A stretch of DNA of 43,709 bases from Vectrevirus T147P1. The notes below the pieces were generated by a model, which saw nothing but the letters and a program-made list of their open reading frames with translations, was not told the origin of the DNA and did not search any database. The number at the start of each line of letters is the position of its first letter. The first letter of the stretch is position 1. The translations under genes were made by a program, and so were the position numbers. Shown here in pieces: positions 2,975 through 23,098 of the stretch. The stretch lies in the sequence record OZ035797.1. One strand, written 5' to 3'.

Positions 2975-3319
2975 ATGCTTAATAAATACTTCAAGCGTAA
3001 AGAGTTTGCTTGCCGTTGTGGCTGCGGTGCATCCACTGTTGATGCTGAATTACTACAGGTAGTAACAGATGTGCGTGAGCACTTTGGTTCTCCTGTAGTT
3101 ATCACTTCGGGGCATCGCTGTGCTAAGCACAATGCTAATGTAGGAGGAGCTAAGAACTCCATGCATCTTACTGGTAAGGCTGCTGACATTAAGGTACGAG
3201 GCATCTTACCTTCTGATGTACATAAGTATCTTACTGATAAGTACCAAGGCAAATATGGGATTGGTAAGTATAACTCCTTTACTCATATTGATGTACGTGA
3301 CGGGTGTGCACGATGGTAG
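2975..3319 (+). CDS. endolysin, peptidase M15-type zinc peptidase (VanY / L-Ala-D-Glu peptidase-like)
   Basis: 114 aa; FACRCGCG, SGHRCAKHN, MHLTGKAAD and FTHIDVRD match the zinc-binding signature of small M15 phage endolysins. Confidence 0.8.
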   Translation: MLNKYFKRKEFACRCGCGASTVDAELLQVVTDVREHFGSPVVITSGHRCAKHNANVGGAKNSMHLTGKAADIKVRGILPSDVHKYLTDKYQGKYGIGKYNSFTHIDVRDGCARW

Positions 3320-3427
3320 GTTGTGTTGCATGGTGTGAACGCATGGTTGCTAAGGCTTCAGAGGAAGGCAACTATGAAGATTGGCAGAACTACTCAACTT
3401 TATTAGCTCAATGGAAAGGGAGATGCA

Positions 3428-3577
3428 ATGAAAAAGCTGTTCAAATCTAAGAAGGTTGTAGGTGCACTAGTTGCATTGGCAATTGCTCTTGTTTCTGTAG
3501 GTCTTGGTGTAGACCTTGGCTCTGGCACGGAATCCTCTGTGACAGACGTGGTCTGCCAAGTGATCACCTGTGAATAA
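3428..3577 (+). CDS. small membrane protein (49 aa), holin-like or antiholin candidate
   Basis: ATG after GGGAGA; MKKLFKSKK then hydrophobic VVGALVALAIALVSVGLGV; below the 60-aa track threshold; sits between endolysin and spanins. Confidence 0.3.
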   Translation: MKKLFKSKKVVGALVALAIALVSVGLGVDLGSGTESSVTDVVCQVITCE

Positions 3578-7849: not shown

Positions 7850-8700
7850 GTTAATATCTTAGTGTACACAAGGGCAGACCTAGGTTTGCTCTTAGTGTAT
7901 TTACAATGGAGGTCTTATGTATATACCTATTGAAGCAATAGTAGGTTGCCTATGTTTGTTGATAGGTTTCGTTATAGGCGTAATAGCAAAGCCTTAGTAC
8001 TGTACAAGGATTAACCAAAGTCAAAATTTTGATATAGGCGTGTGTCAGCTCTCTCGCCCTCGCCCTCGCCGGGTTGTCCCCATATGGGGTCGGTCGGCGG
8101 TTGACCTAGGAATTTGGCGGGGCGGGTCCGTCTTCAACCTGCTGCCGCAGGAAGCTCGACGGGTGGGCGAGGGCTTGCCTTGTACTCGCTTAGTGGTACA
8201 CAAGGAGAACGCCTAGGAAGCGCTAGGGCACGCCTTAGTATTGGACAAGGTGATTGCCTTAGTTCAACCGCTTAGAGCTTACACGGGCCGTTTTAGGGCC
8301 ATTCCTGAGCGTTTGACAGGGTGTGAGGGCGTGGGCTATCTGTTCGTTTCGTTCACTCCGCTTGCGCTACGTTCACTCGCTCACGTGTACCTTAGGTTAT
8401 TCCTTGATGGATAGCTTAGGTTAGCCTTAGTGGATTACCTTAGTTAAAGCCTTAGTGCTTCACTTAGTATCAGCTTAGTAGTGTACCTTAGTAAGTATTA
8501 GTGTCTTCTCTTAGTGATTGCACATGCAAGCATGTAAGATGCCATTAGGTCGCGGTCGGTAGACCGCTAAAGAAGGAGAATAGTAATAAGATGCAGTAGG
8601 AGGAACACCCGAAACCTAGCCAACCTAGCCTATCCTAGCTCTGTATCTATTGCTTTTCCTTAGTCTAACATGTGAGACAACCTAGATTTATCTTAGTGAT
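7850..8700. repeat. genome terminus-like non-coding region with short repeats
   Basis: no long ORF; two copies of CTTAGTG(G)TACACAAGG near 7859 and 8189; GC-rich island with CTCGCC x3 (8053-8070) and CCCCATATGGGG (8078-8089); >10 copies of CCTTAGT/GCTTAG within 8230-8520; resembles the T7 left-end architecture. Confidence 0.5.
8664..8679. repeat. degenerate copy of the palindromic hairpin family
   Basis: GTCTAACATGTGAGAC, one substitution from the GTCTCACATGTGAGAC palindrome. Confidence 0.35.
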
Positions 8701-14668: not shown

Positions 14669-16656
14669 TGGCTATTATTAATAACATCCCGTGCCCTGCC
14701 TGTCAAAAGAATGGACATGATATTACTGGCAACCATCTTATGATATTTGAGGATGGCGCTGGTTACTGTAACCGTGGTCACTTCCATGATAATGGTAAGC
14801 CTTATTACCATAAGCCAGAGGGTGGTATCGAGATAACCGAATTGCCTATTACTGGCAATATCAAATATACACCTTCTCAATTCAAAGAAATGGAGAAGGA
14901 AGGGAAGATAAGCGACCCTAAGCTACGCGCCATCGCTCTTGGTGGTATGCGTATGAAAGACCGTTGGGAGGTCATGAATGAGCAAGAAAGGGCAGACCAA
15001 GAAGCAGAGTGGAAACTTGATGTTGAATGGTTCCTCACGCTTAAGCGTAAGAACCTTGTTTCCAGACACATTCGCGGCGACATTTGCGCATTGTATGATG
15101 TACGTGTCGGACACGATGAAGAGGGTAGAGTCTCGCGGCATTACTATCCACGCTTCGAGAAAGGTGAGCTAGTAGGAGCTAAGTGTCGCACATTACCTAA
15201 AGATTTTAAGTTTGGTCATTTAGGTAAACTCTTTGGTATGCAAGATCTTTTCGGTATGAATACTTTGTCTCACGTGTTAGACAAGGGGAGACGAAAGGAT
15301 TGCTTGCTTATTGTAGGCGGTGAACTTGATGCACTAGCAGCGCAGCAGATGCTCCTTGATTCTGCCAAGGGTACTAAGTGGGAGGGTCAGCCATACCATG
15401 TATGGTCTGTCAACAAAGGTGAGTCTTGCCTTGAAGAGATAGTGCAGAACCGTGAGCATATCGCCCAATTCAAGAAGATTATATGGGGTTTTGATGGAGA
15501 TGAGGTAGGGCAGAAGCAGAATCAGCAAGCGGCTCGCCTGTTTCCTGGCAAATCCTATATCCTTGAATACCCCTCTGGTTGCAAAGATGCTAACAAGGCA
15601 TTGATGGCTGGCAAGGCTAAAGAATTTGTAGATGCATGGTTTAATGCCAAGTCATCTGATGAAGTCTTTGGTAGCCAGATTAAATCTATCGCATCTCAAA
15701 GGGATAAGCTCAAGGCTGCACGTCCAGAGCAAGGACTATCATGGCCTTGGCCTAAGCTGAACAAGGTAACGCTAGGTATTCGTAAGAACCAGCTTATCAT
15801 TGTAGGTGCAGGGTCTGGTGTAGGTAAGACTGAGTTCCTTCGTGAAGTAGTTAAGCACCTCATTGAAGAACACGGTGAATCTGTAGGCATCATTTCTACA
15901 GAAGACCCGATGGTCAAGGTGTCCCGTGCTTTTATCGGCAAGTGGATTGATAAGCGTATTGAGTTACCGCCAACCAACGACCCGAAAGAAGACGGATACC
16001 GTGAGGTGTTCGACTACACCGAGGAAGAAGCTAACGCCGCCATTGATTATGTAGCTGATACAGGTAAGCTGTTTGTAGCTGACCTAGAGGGTGACTATTC
16101 GATGGAAAAGGTAGAGCAAACTTGCCTAGAGTTTGAGGCTATGGGCATTTCTAATATCATCATTGATAACTTAACGGGGATTAAATTAGATGAGCGTGCT
16201 TTTGGTGGGAAGGTTGGTGCACTTGATGAATGCGTCAAGCGGATTGGTACTATCAAAGACCGACACCCGGTTACTATATTCCTTGTATCACACCTTACAC
16301 GTCCTCCGGCAAACCGTACCCAACACGAAGAAGGTGGCGAGGTTATCCTTTCTGACTTCCGAGGCTCAGGCGCTATCGGATTCTGGGCATCTTACGCCTT
16401 GGGGATTGAGCGTAACACAAGAGCTGAAACGCTTGACGAAAGGACTACCACGTACATCTCATGTGTCAAAGACCGCGACCAAGGTATCTACACTGGAACC
16501 AAGGTCATGCTTAAGGGTGACATTCAAACCGGACGTTTAATGGAACCACAAGCCCGTACTAAGTCATTTGATACAGGTGAAGCAAGGCAACAAGAAGTAC
16601 CAGATTTACCGGACACTATAGAAGAGACTAACTTCGATGAAGAAAGTGAGTTCTGA
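14668..16656 (+). CDS. DNA primase/helicase (T7 gp4-like)
   Basis: 662 aa; N-terminal zinc ribbon CPACQ...CNRGH; Walker A GAGSGVGKTE; acidic C-terminus ending EESEF. Confidence 0.9.
   Translation: MAIINNIPCPACQKNGHDITGNHLMIFEDGAGYCNRGHFHDNGKPYYHKPEGGIEITELPITGNIKYTPSQFKEMEKEGKISDPKLRAIALGGMRMKDRWEVMNEQERADQEAEWKLDVEWFLTLKRKNLVSRHIRGDICALYDVRVGHDEEGRVSRHYYPRFEKGELVGAKCRTLPKDFKFGHLGKLFGMQDLFGMNTLSHVLDKGRRKDCLLIVGGELDALAAQQMLLDSAKGTKWEGQPYHVWSVNKGESCLEEIVQNREHIAQFKKIIWGFDGDEVGQKQNQQAARLFPGKSYILEYPSGCKDANKALMAGKAKEFVDAWFNAKSSDEVFGSQIKSIASQRDKLKAARPEQGLSWPWPKLNKVTLGIRKNQLIIVGAGSGVGKTEFLREVVKHLIEEHGESVGIISTEDPMVKVSRAFIGKWIDKRIELPPTNDPKEDGYREVFDYTEEEANAAIDYVADTGKLFVADLEGDYSMEKVEQTCLEFEAMGISNIIIDNLTGIKLDERAFGGKVGALDECVKRIGTIKDRHPVTIFLVSHLTRPPANRTQHEEGGEVILSDFRGSGAIGFWASYALGIERNTRAETLDERTTTYISCVKDRDQGIYTGTKVMLKGDIQTGRLMEPQARTKSFDTGEARQQEVPDLPDTIEETNFDEESEF
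16604..16626 (+). promoter_or_regulatory. phage RNAP promoter inside the 3' end of the helicase gene
   Basis: ATTTACCGGACACTATAGAAGAG. Confidence 0.6.
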
Positions 16657-16732: not shown

Positions 16733-17416
16733 ATGTGCAAATTAGTATTAAATGAAGGTGATAGGGTTCGTAATATTAATACACAATCTGAACGTAGAGG
16801 TTGGATTGGTTATGTAGGTGTCATTTCAGAGAACTATTATACTGTTATGTACACTAATGGTCATGCTCAAAGCTATCTTAAGCGATTAGCCCATAAATAT
16901 CTTGAGAAAATTGTAGAAGCAGACAACCAATGCAAGTGTATACATGATGAACTTTGTTATAAGTGTGCTCGCCAGATGCATAAGATGTCACTATTCCCTA
17001 CTCGCTATGGTGCTGGCATTCAAACCTTAGCAGAGGCATACGGCAAAGGTAAGACTACACTTAATAAAGATCGCCGCAATGTAATCACTGGTAAGACTCA
17101 AAGTGAAATGATTAAGCAATGTGGCACTGCACTAGGTGTTACGCAGTTTAACACTCGTGCTCTTGGTAAATCCACAGGACAAGCTATGGTAAAGATTGGC
17201 GAAGCCATGATGCATCCAAATGTACCTGTACGAATCATGGATGTTGACCATGCAATCACAGAACACGGTACGCAACGACGTGTAATTAATAAGCATTTTG
17301 CCGACACTATAGAAGGTATTATTCGTAAGCAAGGGTTGAAAGGTCTTCACATCTTGAATGATGAAGAGTTACTGTACCTCCCTATTGTTACTGAAGAAAC
17401 CTACGTGAATATCTAA
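16733..17416 (+). CDS. hypothetical protein
   Basis: 227-aa ORF after GGAGATTAACT; Cys cluster CKCIHDELCYKC; no recognised catalytic motif. Confidence 0.55.
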   Translation: MCKLVLNEGDRVRNINTQSERRGWIGYVGVISENYYTVMYTNGHAQSYLKRLAHKYLEKIVEADNQCKCIHDELCYKCARQMHKMSLFPTRYGAGIQTLAEAYGKGKTTLNKDRRNVITGKTQSEMIKQCGTALGVTQFNTRALGKSTGQAMVKIGEAMMHPNVPVRIMDVDHAITEHGTQRRVINKHFADTIEGIIRKQGLKGLHILNDEELLYLPIVTEETYVNI

Positions 17417-17820: not shown

Positions 17821-17844
17821 GGTTGTCTCACACGTGAGACAGCC
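17821..17844. repeat. palindromic hairpin element (family copy D)
   Basis: GGTTGTCTCACACGTGAGACAGCC followed by TTTCAT. Confidence 0.6.
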
Positions 17845-17965
17845 TTTCATCATATTGATTGGAGGTGCATTATGCCACGTGATTATGATTCTGATTGGGA
17901 CTATTATGACTCAATGAATCCAAAACCCGAACGTTCAGATGATTACTACGAAACAGAGGCAATGT

Positions 17966-20512
17966 ATGAAGATTATTGATTGGAAGAATGAGGCAGAAGG
18001 TCGTATCCTCGTGATGGATGCGGAAGCTAAAGGACTCCTTGACGCTATCCGATATGGGCACCGTGAAGATGTGCATATCATTTGCTGCATGGATTTGCTT
18101 ACTACCGAGGAGTTTCTCTTCTTTGACCCGTATGAGATGCGTGACCCTGAAGCAAGAGAACGCCTGAAGGAATGGGAAGGTCATCAAGATGGAACCTTGG
18201 TTGACGGTGTTAACTTCCTGAAGCACTGTGAGGCTATTGTGTCGCAGAACTTCCTAGGGTATGACGGTCTTCTCTTTGAGAAAGCATTCCCTGATATTTG
18301 GAAAGGCTTTAACTATACCGAGAAGCGCGGCAAGGGCAGACTCCGTGCTGACCTGTGTCCGGTGCGAGTCATGGATACGCTGGTGATGAGTCGCCTGTTA
18401 AACCCCGATAGACGCCTTCCTCCGCAAGCATATGCCAAAGGTATGGGTAACGTCGCCCCTCACTCAATTGAGGCGCACGGCATCCGTATAGGCCGCTATA
18501 AACCAGAGAACGAGGACTGGTCTAAACTAACTGATCACATGGTTCACCGTGTACGTGAGGATGTGGCGATTGGTCGTGACCTATTCCTCTGGCTCTTTAA
18601 CGGGGAATGGATGGAGCACAAACGCCGTGGCGTGAACAAACGTACTGGCCTAGGGATTGAGACAGCCTTCCACATGGAGTCCATTGTGGCGCTGGAGATG
18701 AGCCGTCAGGCCGAGCGCGGGTTCCGTCTGGATATTGACAAAGCACTAGCGCGATGCGAAGAATTGGACGCTAAGATTGACGAGACAGTCGCAGCGTTCC
18801 GCCCTCACATGCCTATGCGTATCAAGTCTAAACCTTTTAAACCGGAAGAAAAGAATGAAGTATGCCAACGCGCAAATGAGTATGGAGCTAGCAACAATAT
18901 ACCCACTGTCCTTGACCCCTCACACTTTCTTCATGCCGAGAGACGAGGAGATCGCAAGACAGTATGGAGTGTCACTACTAAGTCTGGTGATTGGTCGGCT
19001 AGTGTCAAGAAAGACTTTCCTCACCTTAGAGGAAACCGTAATGACACGCCAAGCATCAAGTGGATTGGCGCTTACTCGCCTGTTACTTTCGAAGAGATCC
19101 CCTTGGGTAACAGGGATACAGTTAAGCAAGTGCTCTATGATTATGGATGGAAGGGTGTTGAATTTAATGATACCGAGCAAGCACACCTTGATGAGTATGG
19201 AGTGTTACCCAAACCTTGGAGTGGGAAGATAAATGAAAAGTCCCTTACTTTATGGCAAGAGAGAGCCGCACGTGAAGGTAAAACAGTACCCGATTGGTGC
19301 TTGGGTATCGCTGCATGGTACATACTCGTATCCCGTCGTGGTCAGATCCTCAACCGTGGTGACGTTGAAGCCTTCAACGAGAAAGGGACGTGGCCTTCGC
19401 AAGCTGGTGTACGAAAGTGTCGCGGCCTTGTACCTGTAGCATTTAACAAGGAGCTAGGAATCAATGCGCAGCAATACTACGAGAGGTACGGATGCTGGCC
19501 TACGTCAGACAAGGATGACGGAGAGTGGCGTGTTCCAGCTGTTGCTATTAGCATTGGCACTTCTACGTTCCGTATGCGTCATCGTAACGTGGTTAATATT
19601 CCTGCCCGTGGCTTGTATCCTTTACGTGATTTATTCATAGCAGGGAAAGGCAAGCTAATCCTTGGTTGTGACGGTGCAGGTCTTGAACTGCGTGTCCTGT
19701 CTCACTTCATGAATGACCCTGAGTACCAAGAGATTGTACTGCACGGTGATATTCATACGCATAACCAGATGAAGGCTGGTCTTCCTAAGCGTGATATGGC
19801 GAAGACGTTTATATACGCCTTCCTCTATGGCTCTGGTATAGCCAACCTTGCAGCAGTATGTGGTGTTACTGAGGAAGAAATGAAGGAAGTTGTGGCAAGA
19901 TTCGAGATTGAACTGCCGTCTCTTGCACGTCTTCGTGAGAATGTTATCGCACAAGGTAACAAGTTTGGCTACCTGCAAGCACCTGATGGGCATTGGGGTC
20001 GCATCCGCATGTCTGGTGGTGAACTTAAAGAGCACACGATGCTTAACGTATTACTCCAGATGACTGGCTCTTTGTGTATGAAATATGCATTAGTCAAGGC
20101 ATTTGCAGTAATGCGCAAGGAAGGTGTAGCCTTGGATGCTATGGGAAATCCTTGTGGTGTGGCTAACGTGCATGATGAAATCCAGATGGAAGTTCCTGAA
20201 GAGGAGGTCTTGTATCTTAACTACGACCTACCTTTCACCTTAGATGGGTTCGAAACAGAGAAGGCTGCCGTGAAAGCAGTGTTCGATGCAGAGGAGAAAC
20301 GTGTTCATGTGGATTCTGAAGGACGTATGTGGTCTGCTGCAAACCTCGTTAGTGTTGATGCTGATGCTGGTGTATTGCATTGCCAGCGCCGTTATCACCG
20401 TGCAGGTCATATCATTGCCGACGCCATGACTTGGGCAGGGCAGTATCTGAAGATGCGTTGCCCGATGGCAGGCGAATATAAGATTGGCGCAAGTTGGAAG
20501 GAAACACACTGA
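17966..20512 (+). CDS. DNA polymerase, family A (T7 gp5-like) with 3'-5' exonuclease domain
   Basis: ATG at 17966 after AGAGG; Exo I-like LVMDAEAKG; polymerase motifs DGAGLELRVLSH, KTFIYAFLYGSG, VHDEIQ. Confidence 0.9.
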   Translation: MKIIDWKNEAEGRILVMDAEAKGLLDAIRYGHREDVHIICCMDLLTTEEFLFFDPYEMRDPEARERLKEWEGHQDGTLVDGVNFLKHCEAIVSQNFLGYDGLLFEKAFPDIWKGFNYTEKRGKGRLRADLCPVRVMDTLVMSRLLNPDRRLPPQAYAKGMGNVAPHSIEAHGIRIGRYKPENEDWSKLTDHMVHRVREDVAIGRDLFLWLFNGEWMEHKRRGVNKRTGLGIETAFHMESIVALEMSRQAERGFRLDIDKALARCEELDAKIDETVAAFRPHMPMRIKSKPFKPEEKNEVCQRANEYGASNNIPTVLDPSHFLHAERRGDRKTVWSVTTKSGDWSASVKKDFPHLRGNRNDTPSIKWIGAYSPVTFEEIPLGNRDTVKQVLYDYGWKGVEFNDTEQAHLDEYGVLPKPWSGKINEKSLTLWQERAAREGKTVPDWCLGIAAWYILVSRRGQILNRGDVEAFNEKGTWPSQAGVRKCRGLVPVAFNKELGINAQQYYERYGCWPTSDKDDGEWRVPAVAISIGTSTFRMRHRNVVNIPARGLYPLRDLFIAGKGKLILGCDGAGLELRVLSHFMNDPEYQEIVLHGDIHTHNQMKAGLPKRDMAKTFIYAFLYGSGIANLAAVCGVTEEEMKEVVARFEIELPSLARLRENVIAQGNKFGYLQAPDGHWGRIRMSGGELKEHTMLNVLLQMTGSLCMKYALVKAFAVMRKEGVALDAMGNPCGVANVHDEIQMEVPEEEVLYLNYDLPFTLDGFETEKAAVKAVFDAEEKRVHVDSEGRMWSAANLVSVDADAGVLHCQRRYHRAGHIIADAMTWAGQYLKMRCPMAGEYKIGASWKETH

Positions 20513-20628
20513 TGGATAGGCTTGACATTGTTTGCCTATTCTTCACTTTCTTTCTTACACTCCTTATGCTTGCTTGTTATGGGAGTATGAGACTAGATAT
20601 ACCTGATGAAGAAGAGGGTTACGACTAA
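20512..20628 (+). CDS. tiny membrane peptide 1 (38 aa)
   Basis: ATG overlaps DNAP stop (TGATG); hydrophobic LFFTFFLTLLMLA then acidic tail ending GYD. Confidence 0.3.
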   Translation: MDRLDIVCLFFTFFLTLLMLACYGSMRLDIPDEEEGYD

Positions 20629-20726
20629 TGCAAACTGCTTTTATTATTCTTGGTATCATATTATTTATGGTAGTACTCTGGGCCTTCTCTGGCATTGACC
20701 CGGATTGTGATGGTAACTACGACTGA
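20628..20726 (+). CDS. tiny membrane peptide 2 (32 aa)
   Basis: ATG overlaps previous stop (TAATG); hydrophobic FIILGIILFMVVLWAF then acidic tail ending NYD. Confidence 0.3.
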   Translation: MQTAFIILGIILFMVVLWAFSGIDPDCDGNYD

Positions 20727-20784
20727 GTTATACTCAAGGTCACTTACGAGTGGCCTTTATGAATAACTTAACTAAGGAAATATT

Positions 20785-21045
20785 ATGATTAAATATACTG
20801 CTTATCAGTTAACTAAAGACCGTAAGATAGGTATTGAGGTTAAGGCTTGGGAGCGAGGTCATATCTCTGGAGTAATAGAGGTGCGTTCCAATGAAGGTAT
20901 GATGATTAGAAGACACTTTAGTTTCGCTAAATCTACTTGTAAGCATTTAACAGAGGAACAATTCTTACATCATATTATTAATAATATTAAAGCTATCCAG
21001 CCTTATGCCAAGCAAGTTGTAGGTAATGTCACAGTAGTACATTGA
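20785..21045 (+). CDS. hypothetical protein
   Basis: 86-aa ORF after AAGGAAATATT. Confidence 0.5.
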   Translation: MIKYTAYQLTKDRKIGIEVKAWERGHISGVIEVRSNEGMMIRRHFSFAKSTCKHLTEEQFLHHIINNIKAIQPYAKQVVGNVTVVH

Positions 21046-21066
21046 TTTACTGGACACTATAGAAGG
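21045..21066 (+). promoter_or_regulatory. phage RNAP promoter
   Basis: ATTTACTGGACACTATAGAAGG. Confidence 0.7.
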
Positions 21067-21131
21067 AAAGCCTAGACAATCTAGGTTTATAAGGTAGTAT
21101 AGGTAATTAAGTAAATATAGGAGATATAAAC

Positions 21132-21509
21132 ATGTCTATGGTAACTACTCTGGTATTTGTAGCTCAATACTTTCGTGGTCTGGCTAATAAGTTCAAGTCC
21201 AAGGCTATCAAAGCTATTGAGTCTCGCATCGAGGCAGTACAGGCAGAGCAAGTTAAAGTTGAAGAACATCGTAGTTCTCAAATGATTGACTGCCATAACC
21301 GCTACTATGAATCTCGTGATGACCTTAATGCACGCCAAGTCAAAGAGGTTGAAGAGATGCTGGCACGTCACCAGCAAGAGCGCGACAGCCTGAAAGCTGA
21401 ATTTGAAGAGAACAAGGCATCCATCGCCCTTGTACATCAAGCCGCATCTGACAGCCTGAAGAAAGAGATTGTTATGCTGGAAATTGAGTTAGACAACCTG
21501 ACCAAATAA
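21132..21509 (+). CDS. hypothetical protein (hydrophobic N-terminus, coiled-coil-like)
   Basis: 125-aa ORF after TAGGAGATATAAAC. Confidence 0.5.
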   Translation: MSMVTTLVFVAQYFRGLANKFKSKAIKAIESRIEAVQAEQVKVEEHRSSQMIDCHNRYYESRDDLNARQVKEVEEMLARHQQERDSLKAEFEENKASIALVHQAASDSLKKEIVMLEIELDNLTK

Positions 21510-21530
21510 TTACTGGACACTATAGAACAA
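21508..21530 (+). promoter_or_regulatory. phage RNAP promoter
   Basis: AATTACTGGACACTATAGAACAA. Confidence 0.65.
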
Positions 21531-21586
21531 TAGGTCGGCTTAGTTCGGCCTATGATTGTGTAGTGTAACAATAGGAGACTAAATAA

Positions 21587-22393
21587 ATGGCACGTGGTGA
21601 TTTTGATTTTGGTGCTCAGGTTACTAAAGCTGAAGGTAAGGTTTTTAAGAACCCTGAAGTTGGTGATCATGAAGCAGTAATCTCTGGCATCATTCATGTG
21701 GGTTCCTTCCAAGATATCTTTAAGAAAGGTAATACCACTGAAGTTAAGAAGCCAGCAAACTTTGTTCTTGTTAAGATTGTACTGATGGGTGACGATGACA
21801 AGAACGAAGATGATTCTCGCATGGAACAATGGATGGCTGTTCCTCTGAAGTCTGGTGATAAGGCAACACTGACTAAGTTCCTGAATGCAGTTGACCCCAA
21901 AGAATTGCTTGGTGGCTTCGATGATTTTATCGGGGAATGCCTGACTGCAACTATGGTTGGCTCTGGTGACAAGAATGACGATGGTTCATTCAAGTATGTT
22001 AACTGGAAAGGATTCGGTGGTATGCCTGACAAGCTTAAGAAACTTGTCATTGCTCAGGTTGAAGAAGAGGGTCTGTCTATGACAGGTCACATCACCTTCG
22101 ACAAGCTGACCAAAGAAATCCTTGATGACATTCCTGCTAACTTGGTACGCCAATACTTCCTTAATGAAACACCTCGTGGTAAGAACCTGTCTGTTGCTGG
22201 TTCTCACGTAGAAGCAATCATTAAAGCTGCTCGTGAAGAAGACCCAGAGTGGAAGAAAGCCAAGAAGAAAGATGACGAGGATGCTACTCCAGCTAATCGT
22301 AAATCTCTGGATACTGGTGAGTCTGTTCCACAGGAAGTACCTGAAGCAGAAGATACTCCTGCACCGGAGATGGATGAGGACGCGGAATATTAA
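21587..22393 (+). CDS. hypothetical protein with acidic C-terminal tail (possible ssDNA-binding or replisome accessory protein)
   Basis: 268 aa after TAGGAGACTAAATAA; C-terminus ends EMDEDAEY; size compatible with a gp2.5-type SSB but no direct similarity recognised. Confidence 0.5.
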   Translation: MARGDFDFGAQVTKAEGKVFKNPEVGDHEAVISGIIHVGSFQDIFKKGNTTEVKKPANFVLVKIVLMGDDDKNEDDSRMEQWMAVPLKSGDKATLTKFLNAVDPKELLGGFDDFIGECLTATMVGSGDKNDDGSFKYVNWKGFGGMPDKLKKLVIAQVEEEGLSMTGHITFDKLTKEILDDIPANLVRQYFLNETPRGKNLSVAGSHVEAIIKAAREEDPEWKKAKKKDDEDATPANRKSLDTGESVPQEVPEAEDTPAPEMDEDAEY

Positions 22394-22726: not shown

Positions 22727-23098
22727 ATGTTCAAGATTGAAACTATCGTAAACCGTGTTGTTAAAGGTGCTGCTCTGGTATCCGTTGAGTCTTTCATTAT
22801 CGTCGATGAAGCTGATCAACTGGTAGCTGGTACTAAGGCTTACGATACCCGTGAAGAAGCTCAGGCTAAGATTGACAGCATGGGTAACTTCGCTGCTGGT
22901 CTGGAGTTCGCTCGTGCTTGCTTCCCTGAGCAGGCTGACAAAGCTCAGATTGGTAAGGCTAATATCGTAGCTGAATATCTGGATTGGGTTGCTGCTGGTA
23001 AACCAGTGAAAGAAGTTAAGGCTGCTGAAGAAGCTGAAGCTCCAGCAGAAGAAGTAGCTGCACCGGAAACTCCGGTAAGCGAAGAGGAAGAATTTTGA
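22727..23098 (+). CDS. small acidic protein with C-terminal EEEEF tail; function unknown
   Basis: 123 aa; strong SD AAAAGGAGAA; own promoter upstream and terminator-like hairpin downstream. Confidence 0.6.
   Translation: MFKIETIVNRVVKGAALVSVESFIIVDEADQLVAGTKAYDTREEAQAKIDSMGNFAAGLEFARACFPEQADKAQIGKANIVAEYLDWVAAGKPVKEVKAAEEAEAPAEEVAAPETPVSEEEEF

Follow-up and report, generated by a model that had tools for sequence, protein, structure and literature searches.

The two small open reading frames that follow the DNA polymerase gene in record OZ035797.1 (ORF1 and ORF2) are genuine coding genes under purifying selection. We propose, with a probability of roughly 60%, that they are separate accessory genes of the middle phase, and that their products are independently acting single-pass inner-membrane micro-proteins with a role at the envelope. 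The window, i.e. the whole stretch of 43,709 nucleotides that was analysed, represents an SP6/K1-5-like podophage (Vectrevirus) according to database comparison, with matches to Vectrevirus and Zindervirus genomes. The coordinates of the relevant features are collected in Table 1. For the polymerase gene the start was adopted from the 2547-nt gene of K1E, the earliest in-frame ATG being at 17939; its TGA stop occupies 20510-20512.

Table 1. Features at and around the 3' end of the polymerase gene (positions in the window)
Feature	Position	Strand	Remarks
Phage-RNAP promoter-like site, further upstream	16604-16621	+	same promoter scan as the nearest site
Phage-RNAP promoter-like site, nearest upstream	17295-17312	+	ATTTTGCCGACACTATAG
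Family A DNA polymerase gene	17966-20512	+	K1E gp13 homologue, 848 aa; PF00476, E 5.6e-23
Shine-Dalgarno-like AAGGA	20498-20502	+	last polymerase codons, 9 nt before ORF1 ATG; -5.7 kcal/mol; RBS in LL11
ORF1, 38 aa	20512-20628	+	K1E/K1-5 gp13.5, phrog_15860; from sequence and ORF list
Shine-Dalgarno-like GAGG	20614-20617	+	ORF1 tail codons, 10 nt before ORF2 ATG; -6.3 kcal/mol
ORF2, 32 aa	20628-20726	+	K1E/K1-5 gp14, SP6 gp15, phrog_4539; from sequence and ORF list
Conserved RNA hairpin	20724-20770	+	inner stem-loop 20736-20757, 9 bp, UACG loop
Variable 86-aa accessory ORF	20785-21045	+	second slot, in the hairpin-to-promoter interval; outside the peptide pair
Next phage promoter-like site	21045-21062	+	ATTTACTGGACACTATAG; opens the following transcription unit

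Coding potential and composition of the peptides

ORF1 encodes MDRLDIVCLFFTFFLTLLMLACYGSMRLDIPDEEEGYD (ATG at 20512, TAA at 20626-20628) and ORF2 encodes MQTAFIILGIILFMVVLWAFSGIDPDCDGNYD (ATG at 20628, TGA at 20724-20726). In each product a single hydrophobic segment, 17 residues long or more, reaches transmembrane-level hydropathy. The predicted helix spans approximately residues 6-23 in ORF1 (nt 20527-20580) and residues 4-20 in ORF2 (nt 20637-20687), and the Kyte-Doolittle means over 17 residues, 2.72 and 2.96 respectively, are clearly TM-like. The tail of ORF1 is acidic, DIPDEEEGYD (nt 20596-20625), and that of ORF2 follows the invariant pattern DPDxDGNYD (nt 20697-20723), with DPDCDGNYD in this phage. 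Sequence and hydropathy agree with an earlier sequence-only reading, in which two tiny ORFs had been described, each with a hydrophobic helix followed by an acidic tail that closes with YD. The charges leave the topology ambiguous, as ORF1 has a single Arg on either side of the helix and ORF2 has neither Lys nor Arg. In the family alignments the invariant columns concentrate at A21-S25 and D32-D38 of ORF1 and at W18-G22 and D24-D32 of ORF2.

Hydrophobicity by itself is no better than chance as an argument for a gene, because 12 of the 18 small hydrophobic plus-strand ORFs in the window sit inside real genes. ORF1 and ORF2 rise above this chance level since they occupy intergenic space of their own, keep their frames, accept an in-frame indel (a 3-nt insertion in the relative P0008), retain the stop/start overlap and possess Shine-Dalgarno pairing. 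In a comparison based on 11-12 closely related sequences, pN/pS in the annotated frame was 0.22 for ORF1 and 0.23 for ORF2, whereas the two alternative frames gave 0.8-1.1 and the C-terminus of the polymerase 0.10; the conservation check suggested along with the sequence-only reading thus found the reading frames kept in relatives. One could argue that the peptides are inert, that only translation up to the hairpin matters or that the frames are open by chance in a spacer, given that spurious small hydrophobic ORFs are common in this genome and that either ORF is dispensable. We regard this as scarcely probable in view of the in-frame ratio of about 0.22 against about 1 out of frame, the invariant tail residues and the tolerated in-frame indel. 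In addition, no spacer is required, because in relatives with neither ORF only 6 nt separate the polymerase stop from the hairpin.

Coupling, transcription and cassette organization

The ORF1 start overlaps the polymerase stop (TGATG), and the ORF2 start overlaps the ORF1 stop (TAATG). An overlap of this kind (TGATG, TAATG or TAGTG) is present in all relatives at each junction with a complete upstream ORF. In phage R4596 a double change from TGATG to TAGTG retains it with a GTG start, and in P0014, an ORF1 relative at 56% identity, the start still lies on the polymerase stop. The overlapping junctions and the coupling arrangement, both remarked on before from the sequence, are thus kept among relatives, and by this layout both genes appear to be arranged for translational coupling. 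Ribosomes that end the polymerase could re-initiate at ORF1 and next at ORF2, which would lead to modest, timed expression. Independent initiation would also be possible because ORF1 and ORF2 each have their own Shine-Dalgarno site, with pairing energies close to that of the polymerase gene (-5.8 kcal/mol). A -1 ribosomal frameshift at the polymerase end, producing a fusion with ORF1 and hence a membrane-anchored polymerase, was considered since ORF1 is in frame -1 relative to the polymerase, no stop interrupts this frame over the 30 nt before the ATG, and the SD-like AAGGA is close by. Its probability is next to nil: by direct reading the interval 20482-20511 is free of an X XXY YYZ slippery heptamer, the start codon at the junction is always conserved (ATG; GTG in R4596), and in phage NTNC80A ORF1 comes after a homing endonuclease gene instead. 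We rejected the fusion because of the missing slippery site and the conserved start codon.

The scan for phage promoters returned 11 matches in comparison to 0.06 expected. As two promoter-like sites lie upstream at 16604 and 17295 and the next one follows only at 21045, ORF1 and ORF2 are predicted to be co-transcribed with the polymerase gene on one middle-phase transcript. The hairpin noticed earlier at 20737-20756 is real, and its stem-loop is part of a longer structure (Table 1) with an energy of -17.5 kcal/mol (z = -3.5 compared to shuffled sequences) and three compensatory pair changes in L013/L015. A search of Rfam over positions 20000-21600 gave no match, and the hairpin, which has no T-run, was not flagged in a scan for sigma-70 promoters and intrinsic terminators. 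It could form the RNA 3' end of the transcription unit of the polymerase or act in the processing of its RNA.

The hairpin also forms the 3' edge of the slot in which the small genes are found, and it occurs whether a relative has both of them, one or none. Relatives carry both ORFs, either one alone, or neither, and both singleton states were seen. The cassettes between the polymerase stop and the hairpin are exact, with 116 nt for ORF1 and 98 nt for ORF2, and are bounded by short repeats (ACTRA / TACGACTRA); among close relatives the distance from polymerase stop to hairpin is only 6, 104, 122 or 220 nt. The presence of ORF2 differs among phages whose polymerase ends are merely 0.5-0.8% different. 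ORF1 is broken in some isolates, namely frameshifted in ULINTec6, truncated in Mt1B1_P10 and fused in P0012, where sequencing error is a possible cause. In NTNC80A a homing endonuclease gene is situated between the polymerase gene and ORF1, and comparison of relatives identifies the locus just 3' of the polymerase gene as a general hot spot at which unrelated cassettes insert. The order of polymerase gene, small ORF(s) and gp15 homologue is kept in K1E, LL11 and SP6 and at about 30 loci. From this distribution both genes appear to be dispensable accessory cassettes that are present or absent independently of each other.

Prior annotation and relation between the two genes

The sequence-only reading had called the pair unexplained by standard annotation. 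This does not hold, as both are annotated CDSs in K1E (gp13.5 and gp14), and annotation also exists in K1-5, SP6 and LL11. The genes of K1E and K1-5 (gp13.5, gp14) and SP6 (gp15) are the same genes as ORF1 and ORF2, sharing position, overlapping starts and TMD annotation, and the annotated CDSs are 84-100% identical. In LL11 both CPT_LL11_019 and 020 carry the TMHMM-based note "TMD N in C out" together with RBSs; many other genome records omit one or both ORFs. ORF1 and ORF2 are therefore already known as hypothetical proteins, belonging to PHROG families with unassigned function: the PHROG 15860 profile matches ORF1 over residues 1-38 of 38 (E 1.7e-28), and the PHROG 4539 profile matches residues 1-28 of ORF2 (E 2e-16). 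Literature searches returned no paper characterising gp13.5 or gp14 and no report on expression, localisation or phenotype.

Homologues outside the SP6/K1-5-like phages were not found in the collections searched. Pfam, NCBIfam, the PADLOC defence models (E up to 1) and a PDB profile search gave no match, and 185,579 bacterial species genomes contained no homologue of either ORF. A metagenome scan yielded two ordinary relatives, and a search of IMG/VR with the ORF2 alignment only contigs already found. With ORF1 as query, HMMER returned only 2 clusters from 1.84 billion representatives; database cluster P0001 matches ORF1 with 100% identity. A query with the fused ORF1+ORF2 protein detected only 12 ORF1 clusters and no ORF2 members, in a collection that may omit such short peptides.

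The two peptides had also been taken for paralogues, a claim that found no support here. The hhalign probability was 0.9% with only the last 8 residues aligned, and the similarity is confined to PDxxxxYD. A segment-preserving shuffle test gave p = 0.09 for ORF1 compared to ORF2, with p = 0.045 for the tails only and p = 0.23 at the nucleotide level. The ORFs fall into separate PHROG families, and tblastn with either of them never found the other, because each record yielded one place only. ORF1 and ORF2 are accordingly not demonstrably duplicates, and at such a length an ancient duplication might leave the same picture.

As things stand the significance is small: the genes were already annotated when the SP6, K1-5 and K1E genomes appeared, and they belong to a large class of phage accessory ORFans. 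The present analysis adds purifying selection on both frames and the description of two independent, precisely bounded cassettes of non-demonstrable paralogy in a recombination-prone slot beside a conserved hairpin. Selection, precise cassettes and independence therefore make them clean, easily deleted candidates for studies of micro-membrane proteins in lytic phages.

Potential functions

For the proposed membrane role, the helix would insert N-in/C-out, leaving the short acidic tail in the periplasm, where either peptide may by itself target a component of the host envelope or an ion. The role could be host-envelope takeover, superinfection exclusion or counter-defence, and not replication; analogy and the accessory distribution point in this direction. 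T4 Imm and Sp and HK97 gp15 are small, non-essential inner-membrane phage proteins that are expressed before lysis and occur patchily among relatives, and ORF1 and ORF2 resemble such superinfection-exclusion or moron proteins in these traits. They differ in that T4 Imm, Sp and HK97 gp15 have 80-100 or more residues, larger soluble parts and zero sequence similarity to ORF1 or ORF2. The host-encoded MgrB, AcrZ, KdpF and CydX have 30-50 residues and a single TM helix, and bind a larger membrane protein. Here the likeness consists of size, one TM helix and conservation at the helix end plus short tail; in contrast to the phage peptides, to which they have no homology, these regulators are encoded by the host.

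A function in replication, as implied by the earlier suggestion of membrane anchors, would have the peptides tether the replisome in an N-out/C-in orientation, with acidic tails in the cytoplasm that attach to a basic patch, either of the phage polymerase or of some other protein in the replisome. In this they would imitate the tails of T7-type SSB and helicase, which are acidic and end in an aromatic residue, and replication would be organised at the membrane. The idea draws on the coupled position directly 3' of the polymerase gene, on the penultimate Tyr of the acidic tails and on two neighbouring replication-region proteins that end in ...DEDAEY and ...SEEEEF. The tails of T7 gp2.5 and gp4 bind gp5, and phi29 p16.7 and p1 are precedents of membrane-organised replication, being phage membrane proteins likewise encoded among replication genes. 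However, the DNA-binding domain of p16.7 comprises about 70 aa, while ORF1 and ORF2 have acidic tails of 10-15 residues and are dispensable among near-identical phages. Phages with polymerases 0.5-0.8% different are devoid of ORF2, and others of ORF1 or of both; plaque-forming isolates have a disrupted ORF1; the LL11 annotators predicted N-in/C-out; and both the endonuclease gene that parts ORF1 from the polymerase gene in NTNC80A and the use of the site as an insertion hot spot weaken the argument from position. With both genes missing next to nearly identical polymerases, the anchor suggestion could not be upheld, and we consider a tether highly improbable.

A toxin-like or regulatory role, which the sequence-only reading had offered as well, could also apply. 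Membrane-active peptides modelled on type I toxins or on holin/antiholin-like proteins would oligomerise and disturb membrane potential or permeability for host shut-off or the timing of lysis. A very small hydrophobic peptide with strong TM-like hydropathy is the usual form of such effectors, and a toxic product would fit low, coupled expression. This is nevertheless unlikely, since the lysis genes (endolysin and holin PHROG 4712) are 17 kb away, the tails are strongly acidic and neither basic nor amphipathic, and conservation is highest in the tails and boundary residues and not on a helix face. Each gene can be dispensed with and is found without the other, and with both singleton states on record a toxin/antidote pair was rejected. 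Proteins of the lysis cassette (holin, antiholin, spanin) were likewise discarded, because endolysin (phrog_894) and holin (phrog_4712) genes are located at 2975-3577; ORF1 and ORF2 match only PHROGs of unknown function. Processed, exported products are somewhat less likely still. Here ORF1 would be a lipoprotein precursor that yields a 17-residue acidic lipopeptide, its LMLA|C fitting the PROSITE lipobox rule (pattern [LIVMFWSTAG]2-[LIVMFYSTAGCQ]-[AGS]-C), and ORF2 a signal-peptide-like precursor cleaved at AFS|G into an 11-residue acidic periplasmic peptide. A lipoprotein should moreover show a positively charged n-region and conservation throughout the family. Read directly, the ORF1 sequence shows R3, an h-region free of charges and L-M-L-A-C22, close relatives fit, and A21 and C22 are invariant across the close family; in ORF2, G22 is preceded at -3 and -1 by small residues that are invariant. 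On the other hand, P0014 has I-F-C-C and an N-terminus without Lys or Arg, P0009 has no N-terminal positive charge, ORF2 has no positive n-region, and the LL11 pipeline included LipoP yet a TMD was annotated.

The resemblance of the ORF2 tail to a truncated EF-hand loop is a lead only. The invariant AFSGIDPDCDGNYD matches the end of the entering helix (A-F-x-x-hydrophobic) of EF-hand or lanmodulin loops (DPDKDGTLD), and the tail agrees with loop positions 1, 3, 5, 6 and 9, with Pro at position 2 as in lanmodulin. D24-P-D26-x-D28-G29 is invariant in ORF2, and the window, translated in all six frames, contains DxDxDG only a single time; the motif is absent from ORF1. The chance of DxDxDG is 2.8% given the composition of the ORF2 tail and 0.24% for the whole peptide, for a motif that was noticed post hoc. 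In contrast to EF-hand loops, position 8 is Tyr and the peptide stops at position 9, so that Glu12 and the exiting helix are missing. Profile evidence was negative as well, with no Pfam EF-hand match, a PDB single-sequence E of 0.78 and nothing from the PDB profile search. It is very unlikely, taken as a whole, that ORF2 is a minimal membrane-anchored metal-binding peptide in which the TM helix serves as entering helix and the tail as a truncated lanmodulin-like loop, with the cation, Ca2+ or another, bound at the membrane surface. Oligomerisation or the C-terminal carboxylate would then have to complete the loop, and ORF1 would be an independent acidic-tail analogue. The phage might in this way alter the ion status of the envelope or block a cation-dependent step, e.g. 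the entry of superinfecting DNA. Should cation binding by the ORF2 tail be real, few natural metal-binding units anchored in a membrane would be smaller.

Two small genes behind the polymerase gene

The family A DNA polymerase gene of the window is followed by two short open reading frames, ORF1 and ORF2, which start on overlapping stop/start junctions, TGATG between the polymerase gene and ORF1 and TAATG between ORF1 and ORF2. Each peptide has one strongly hydrophobic stretch (KD17 of 2.72 in ORF1 and 2.96 in ORF2) and an acidic tail, the last three residues being GYD in ORF1 and NYD in ORF2. Positions, junctions, helices, YD tails and the hairpin that follows had been described accurately by the sequence-only reading. 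It had also regarded the pair as not explained by standard annotation, which does not hold, as ORF1 and ORF2 are accessory genes already known from SP6-like phages and annotated there. ORF1 is gp13.5 of K1E and K1-5, ORF2 is gp14 of the same phages and gp15 of SP6, and the record of LL11, whose annotation pipeline included TMHMM and LipoP, gives each of the two genes an RBS and labels it “TMD N in C out”. Among database clusters, one with 17 member sequences is identical to ORF1; the PHROG assignments (15860 for ORF1, 4539 for ORF2) are both labelled unknown function. One or both genes are left out of many GenBank records, and annotation is therefore inconsistent, though not missing. A literature search found no paper characterizing gp13.5 or gp14.

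Features of the window discussed in the text
Feature	Position	Strand	Remarks
Tiny hydrophobic ORF	7917-7997		in its own space
Tiny hydrophobic ORF	17834-17917		in its own space
35-aa acidic ORF	17872-17979		overlaps polymerase gene start
Polymerase gene	17966-20512	+	K1E gp13 homologue
gp13.1/gp13.2 open frames	~18777-19439		equivalent of K1E frames
Polymerase stop TGA	20510-20512	+	from sequence
ORF1	ATG 20512, TAA 20626-20628	+	38 aa, from sequence
ORF2	ATG 20628, TGA 20724-20726	+	32 aa, from sequence
Hairpin, longer structure	20724-20770		
Hairpin, inner stem-loop	20736-20757		9-bp stem, UACG loop
86-aa ORF	20785-21045	+	second variable slot, between conserved hairpin and phage promoter at 21045
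phrog_862 protein	21587-22393		tail ...DEDAEY
phrog_4429 protein	22727-23098		tail ...SEEEEF

Small ORFs with a hydrophobic stretch often arise here as artefacts, 12 of the 18 on the plus strand of the window lying inside real genes, and the case for ORF1 and ORF2 is therefore a comparative one. In the annotated frames pN/pS is 0.22 for ORF1 and 0.23 for ORF2 (12 and 11 distinct nucleotide versions), compared to 0.82-1.07 in the two other frames and 0.10 for the polymerase C-terminus. In one relative (P0008) a Gly is inserted in frame. The start/stop overlap is retained in every relative with a complete upstream ORF; in phage R4596 TGATG has become TAGTG, preserving both stop and start, and P0014, a relative 56% identical to ORF1, likewise starts on the polymerase stop. 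As the upstream TTG at 20494 is missing from the relatives' loci L005 and L008, ATG 20512 is the conserved start. SD pairing amounts to -5.7 kcal/mol for ORF1 and -6.3 kcal/mol for ORF2 (top ~15% of all ATGs), the polymerase gene's own value being -5.8. Judged by these comparisons ORF1 and ORF2 are real genes, and the gene arrangement makes translational coupling from the polymerase gene to ORF1 and on to ORF2 structurally plausible. Of the coupled membrane micro-proteins proposed earlier for a replication operon, the real and coupled-looking genes stand, while their link to replication does not reach beyond position.

Cassettes between the polymerase gene and a conserved hairpin

The surrounding region matches 83 phage records with 84-99% identity, nearly all of them Vectrevirus (K1E, K1-5, LL11 and relatives), Zindervirus (SP6) being more distant. 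The window has about the length of one genome. Its genes include those for a large terminase, an endolysin, a holin, an RNA polymerase and the capsid, and it carries eleven SP6-type promoter-like sites (consensus ATTTACYGGACACTATAG) versus 0.06 expected by chance.

Among close relatives the hairpin core lies at one of only four distances behind the polymerase stop: 6 nt (neither ORF), 104 nt (ORF2 only; SP6, mutPK1A2 and locus L010), 122 nt (ORF1 only; KMB14, LF31P3, CrRp3 and R4596) and 220 nt (both ORFs). The modules therefore measure exactly 116 nt (ORF1) and 98 nt (ORF2). Loci L044 and L003 are without ORF2 though the last 600 nt of their polymerase genes differ by 0.5-0.8% from the window. 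The cassette junctions are short repeats, ...CACTGA(TG) at the end of the polymerase gene, ...TACGACTAA(TG) at the end of ORF1 and ...TACGACTGA(GTTATAC) at the end of ORF2; ORF2-only phages carry the ORF1/ORF2-type TAATG junction immediately after the polymerase gene, and ORF1-only phages have TACGACTGAGTTATAC. This pattern fits a precise loss or gain of cassettes, which could have occurred through recombination at the repeats.

ORF1 and ORF2 are independent, neither needing the other. ORF1 is broken by a frameshift in ULINTec6, a premature TAG in Mt1B1_P10 and an out-of-frame fusion in cluster P0012; ORF2 is degraded in L006, and in one divergent contig its slot holds a 22-aa non-hydrophobic ORF in which ...EPDCNN... 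is still present. NTNC80A has a homing endonuclease gene between the polymerase gene and ORF1, and in more distant relatives the same place is occupied by HNH endonucleases, other ORFs or an unrelated tiny TM ORF pair. These varied insertions indicate that the adjacency reflects an insertion hot spot and not a functional link to replication.

Several relatives have homing-endonuclease-type genes (HNH-like, Endonuclease_7) inserted in the polymerase gene or beside it (L043, i.e. NTNC80A, 286-714; L018 and L024, after the gene; L063, 454-888), which makes this region a hot spot of mobile insertions. The unrelated pair, 28-32-aa hydrophobic ORFs ~10-204 nt after the polymerase stop, occurs in L031-L034, where the polymerase C-terminus is 53% identical and a ThyX-like gene comes next; its first ORF shows a frameshift difference between contigs.

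The hairpin at the 3' edge of the slot was confirmed, with -17.5 kcal/mol and z = -3.5. Its element TGAGTTATACTCAAGGTCACTTACGAGTGGCCTTTATGAATAACTTA is nearly invariant across all four architectures, and three compensatory stem-pair changes were found in L013 and L015 (AAGGUCAC/GUGGCCUU to AAGGCAUC/GGUGCCUU); divergent relatives have different hairpins at the equivalent place. It has no T-run and no Rfam match. K1E-type genomes have a phage promoter within ~35 nt downstream; in the window this promoter, at 21045, comes only after the variable ORF of 86 aa. We infer an RNA 3'-end, processing or stabilizing element of the polymerase transcription unit, which may act as terminator, stabilizer or processing site. 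The conservation of the hairpin exceeds that of the flanking coding sequence. The 86-aa ORF, present in some relatives only, is split or carries a frameshift in L004 and in SP6 (L014). It matches phrog_35123 and weakly resembles PDDEXK_15, below the threshold (E 1.3e-3); elsewhere this second slot holds a 194-aa ORF (L012, L013, L015) or, in K1E, nothing.

Relationship and possible function of the peptides

ORF1 and ORF2 have a common architecture and the C-terminal pattern PDxxxxYD, and had been taken for paralogues. Common descent is not supported by our comparisons, the peptides being too short for its exclusion: hhalign gave a probability of 0.9% with only the eight PDxxxxYD columns aligned, shuffling gave p = 0.09 with helix and tail composition preserved, 0.045 for the tail alone and 0.23 for nucleotides, PHROGs keeps separate families, and tblastn with either peptide did not match its partner ORF in the same record. 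As the shared ending TAC GAC TRA is also the repeat bounding the cassettes, it could owe as much to past recombination as to common ancestry.

The invariant residues cluster at the helix end and tail (A21-C-Y-G-S25 and D32...GYD in ORF1; W18, F20-S-G22 and D24-P-D-x-D-G-N-Y-D32 in ORF2), which points to a specific interaction of the tail at the membrane surface. Homologues outside this phage group were found neither in bacterial genomes or 1.84-billion protein representatives nor in Pfam, NCBIfam, PADLOC or PDB. Two dispensable, mutually independent genes with a patchy distribution and expression in the middle phase fit what is expected of phage accessory envelope proteins, for instance of the exclusion, takeover or counter-defence type. 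This is the reading we favour; its functional step alone we rate at roughly 30%.

An anchoring of replication at the membrane by ORF1 and ORF2, one form of the membrane anchors suggested earlier, is undercut because the cassettes are present in some and absent from other phages with near-identical polymerases. Toxin or lysis-timing peptides are hard to reconcile with acidic, conserved tails and a distant lysis cassette (17 kb away). The pN/pS values speak against a role of translation through the region alone, with inert peptides, and a -1 frameshift fusion of ORF1 to the polymerase is at odds with the conserved start codon and with a sequence that has no slippery site.

The segment AFSGIDPDCDGNYD of ORF2 resembles the last part of the entering helix of an EF-hand together with loop positions 1-9, and across all six translated frames of the window the motif DxDxDG is present a single time. 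The PDB search with ORF2 matched only lanmodulin loops (DPDKDGTLD; E 0.78, non-significant). The ORF2 loop, however, is truncated, and neither a profile search nor Pfam gave a match. LMLAC of ORF1 satisfies the PROSITE lipobox rule, divergent ORF1 members do not, and the LL11 annotators, with LipoP in their pipeline, called no lipoprotein.

Other small or acidic reading frames

The 35-aa ORF is extremely acidic and Tyr/Asp-rich (MPRDYDSDWDYYDS...EAMYEDY; phrog_15473), and by its overlap micro-ORFs flank the polymerase gene on both sides. Of the two further tiny hydrophobic ORFs, the 26-aa one matches phrog_37692 (E 5.8e-12), and the 27-aa GTG-start one had no match in the PHROG search. K1E (L001, 56-640) has the CDSs gp13.1 and gp13.2 embedded in another frame of the polymerase gene, which are also open in the window and probably represent over-annotation. 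The phrog_862 and phrog_4429 proteins are conserved unknown proteins with acidic tails and a terminal aromatic residue, recalling the tails of T7 gp2.5 and gp4, and by this analogy could possibly be SSB-like replisome partners.
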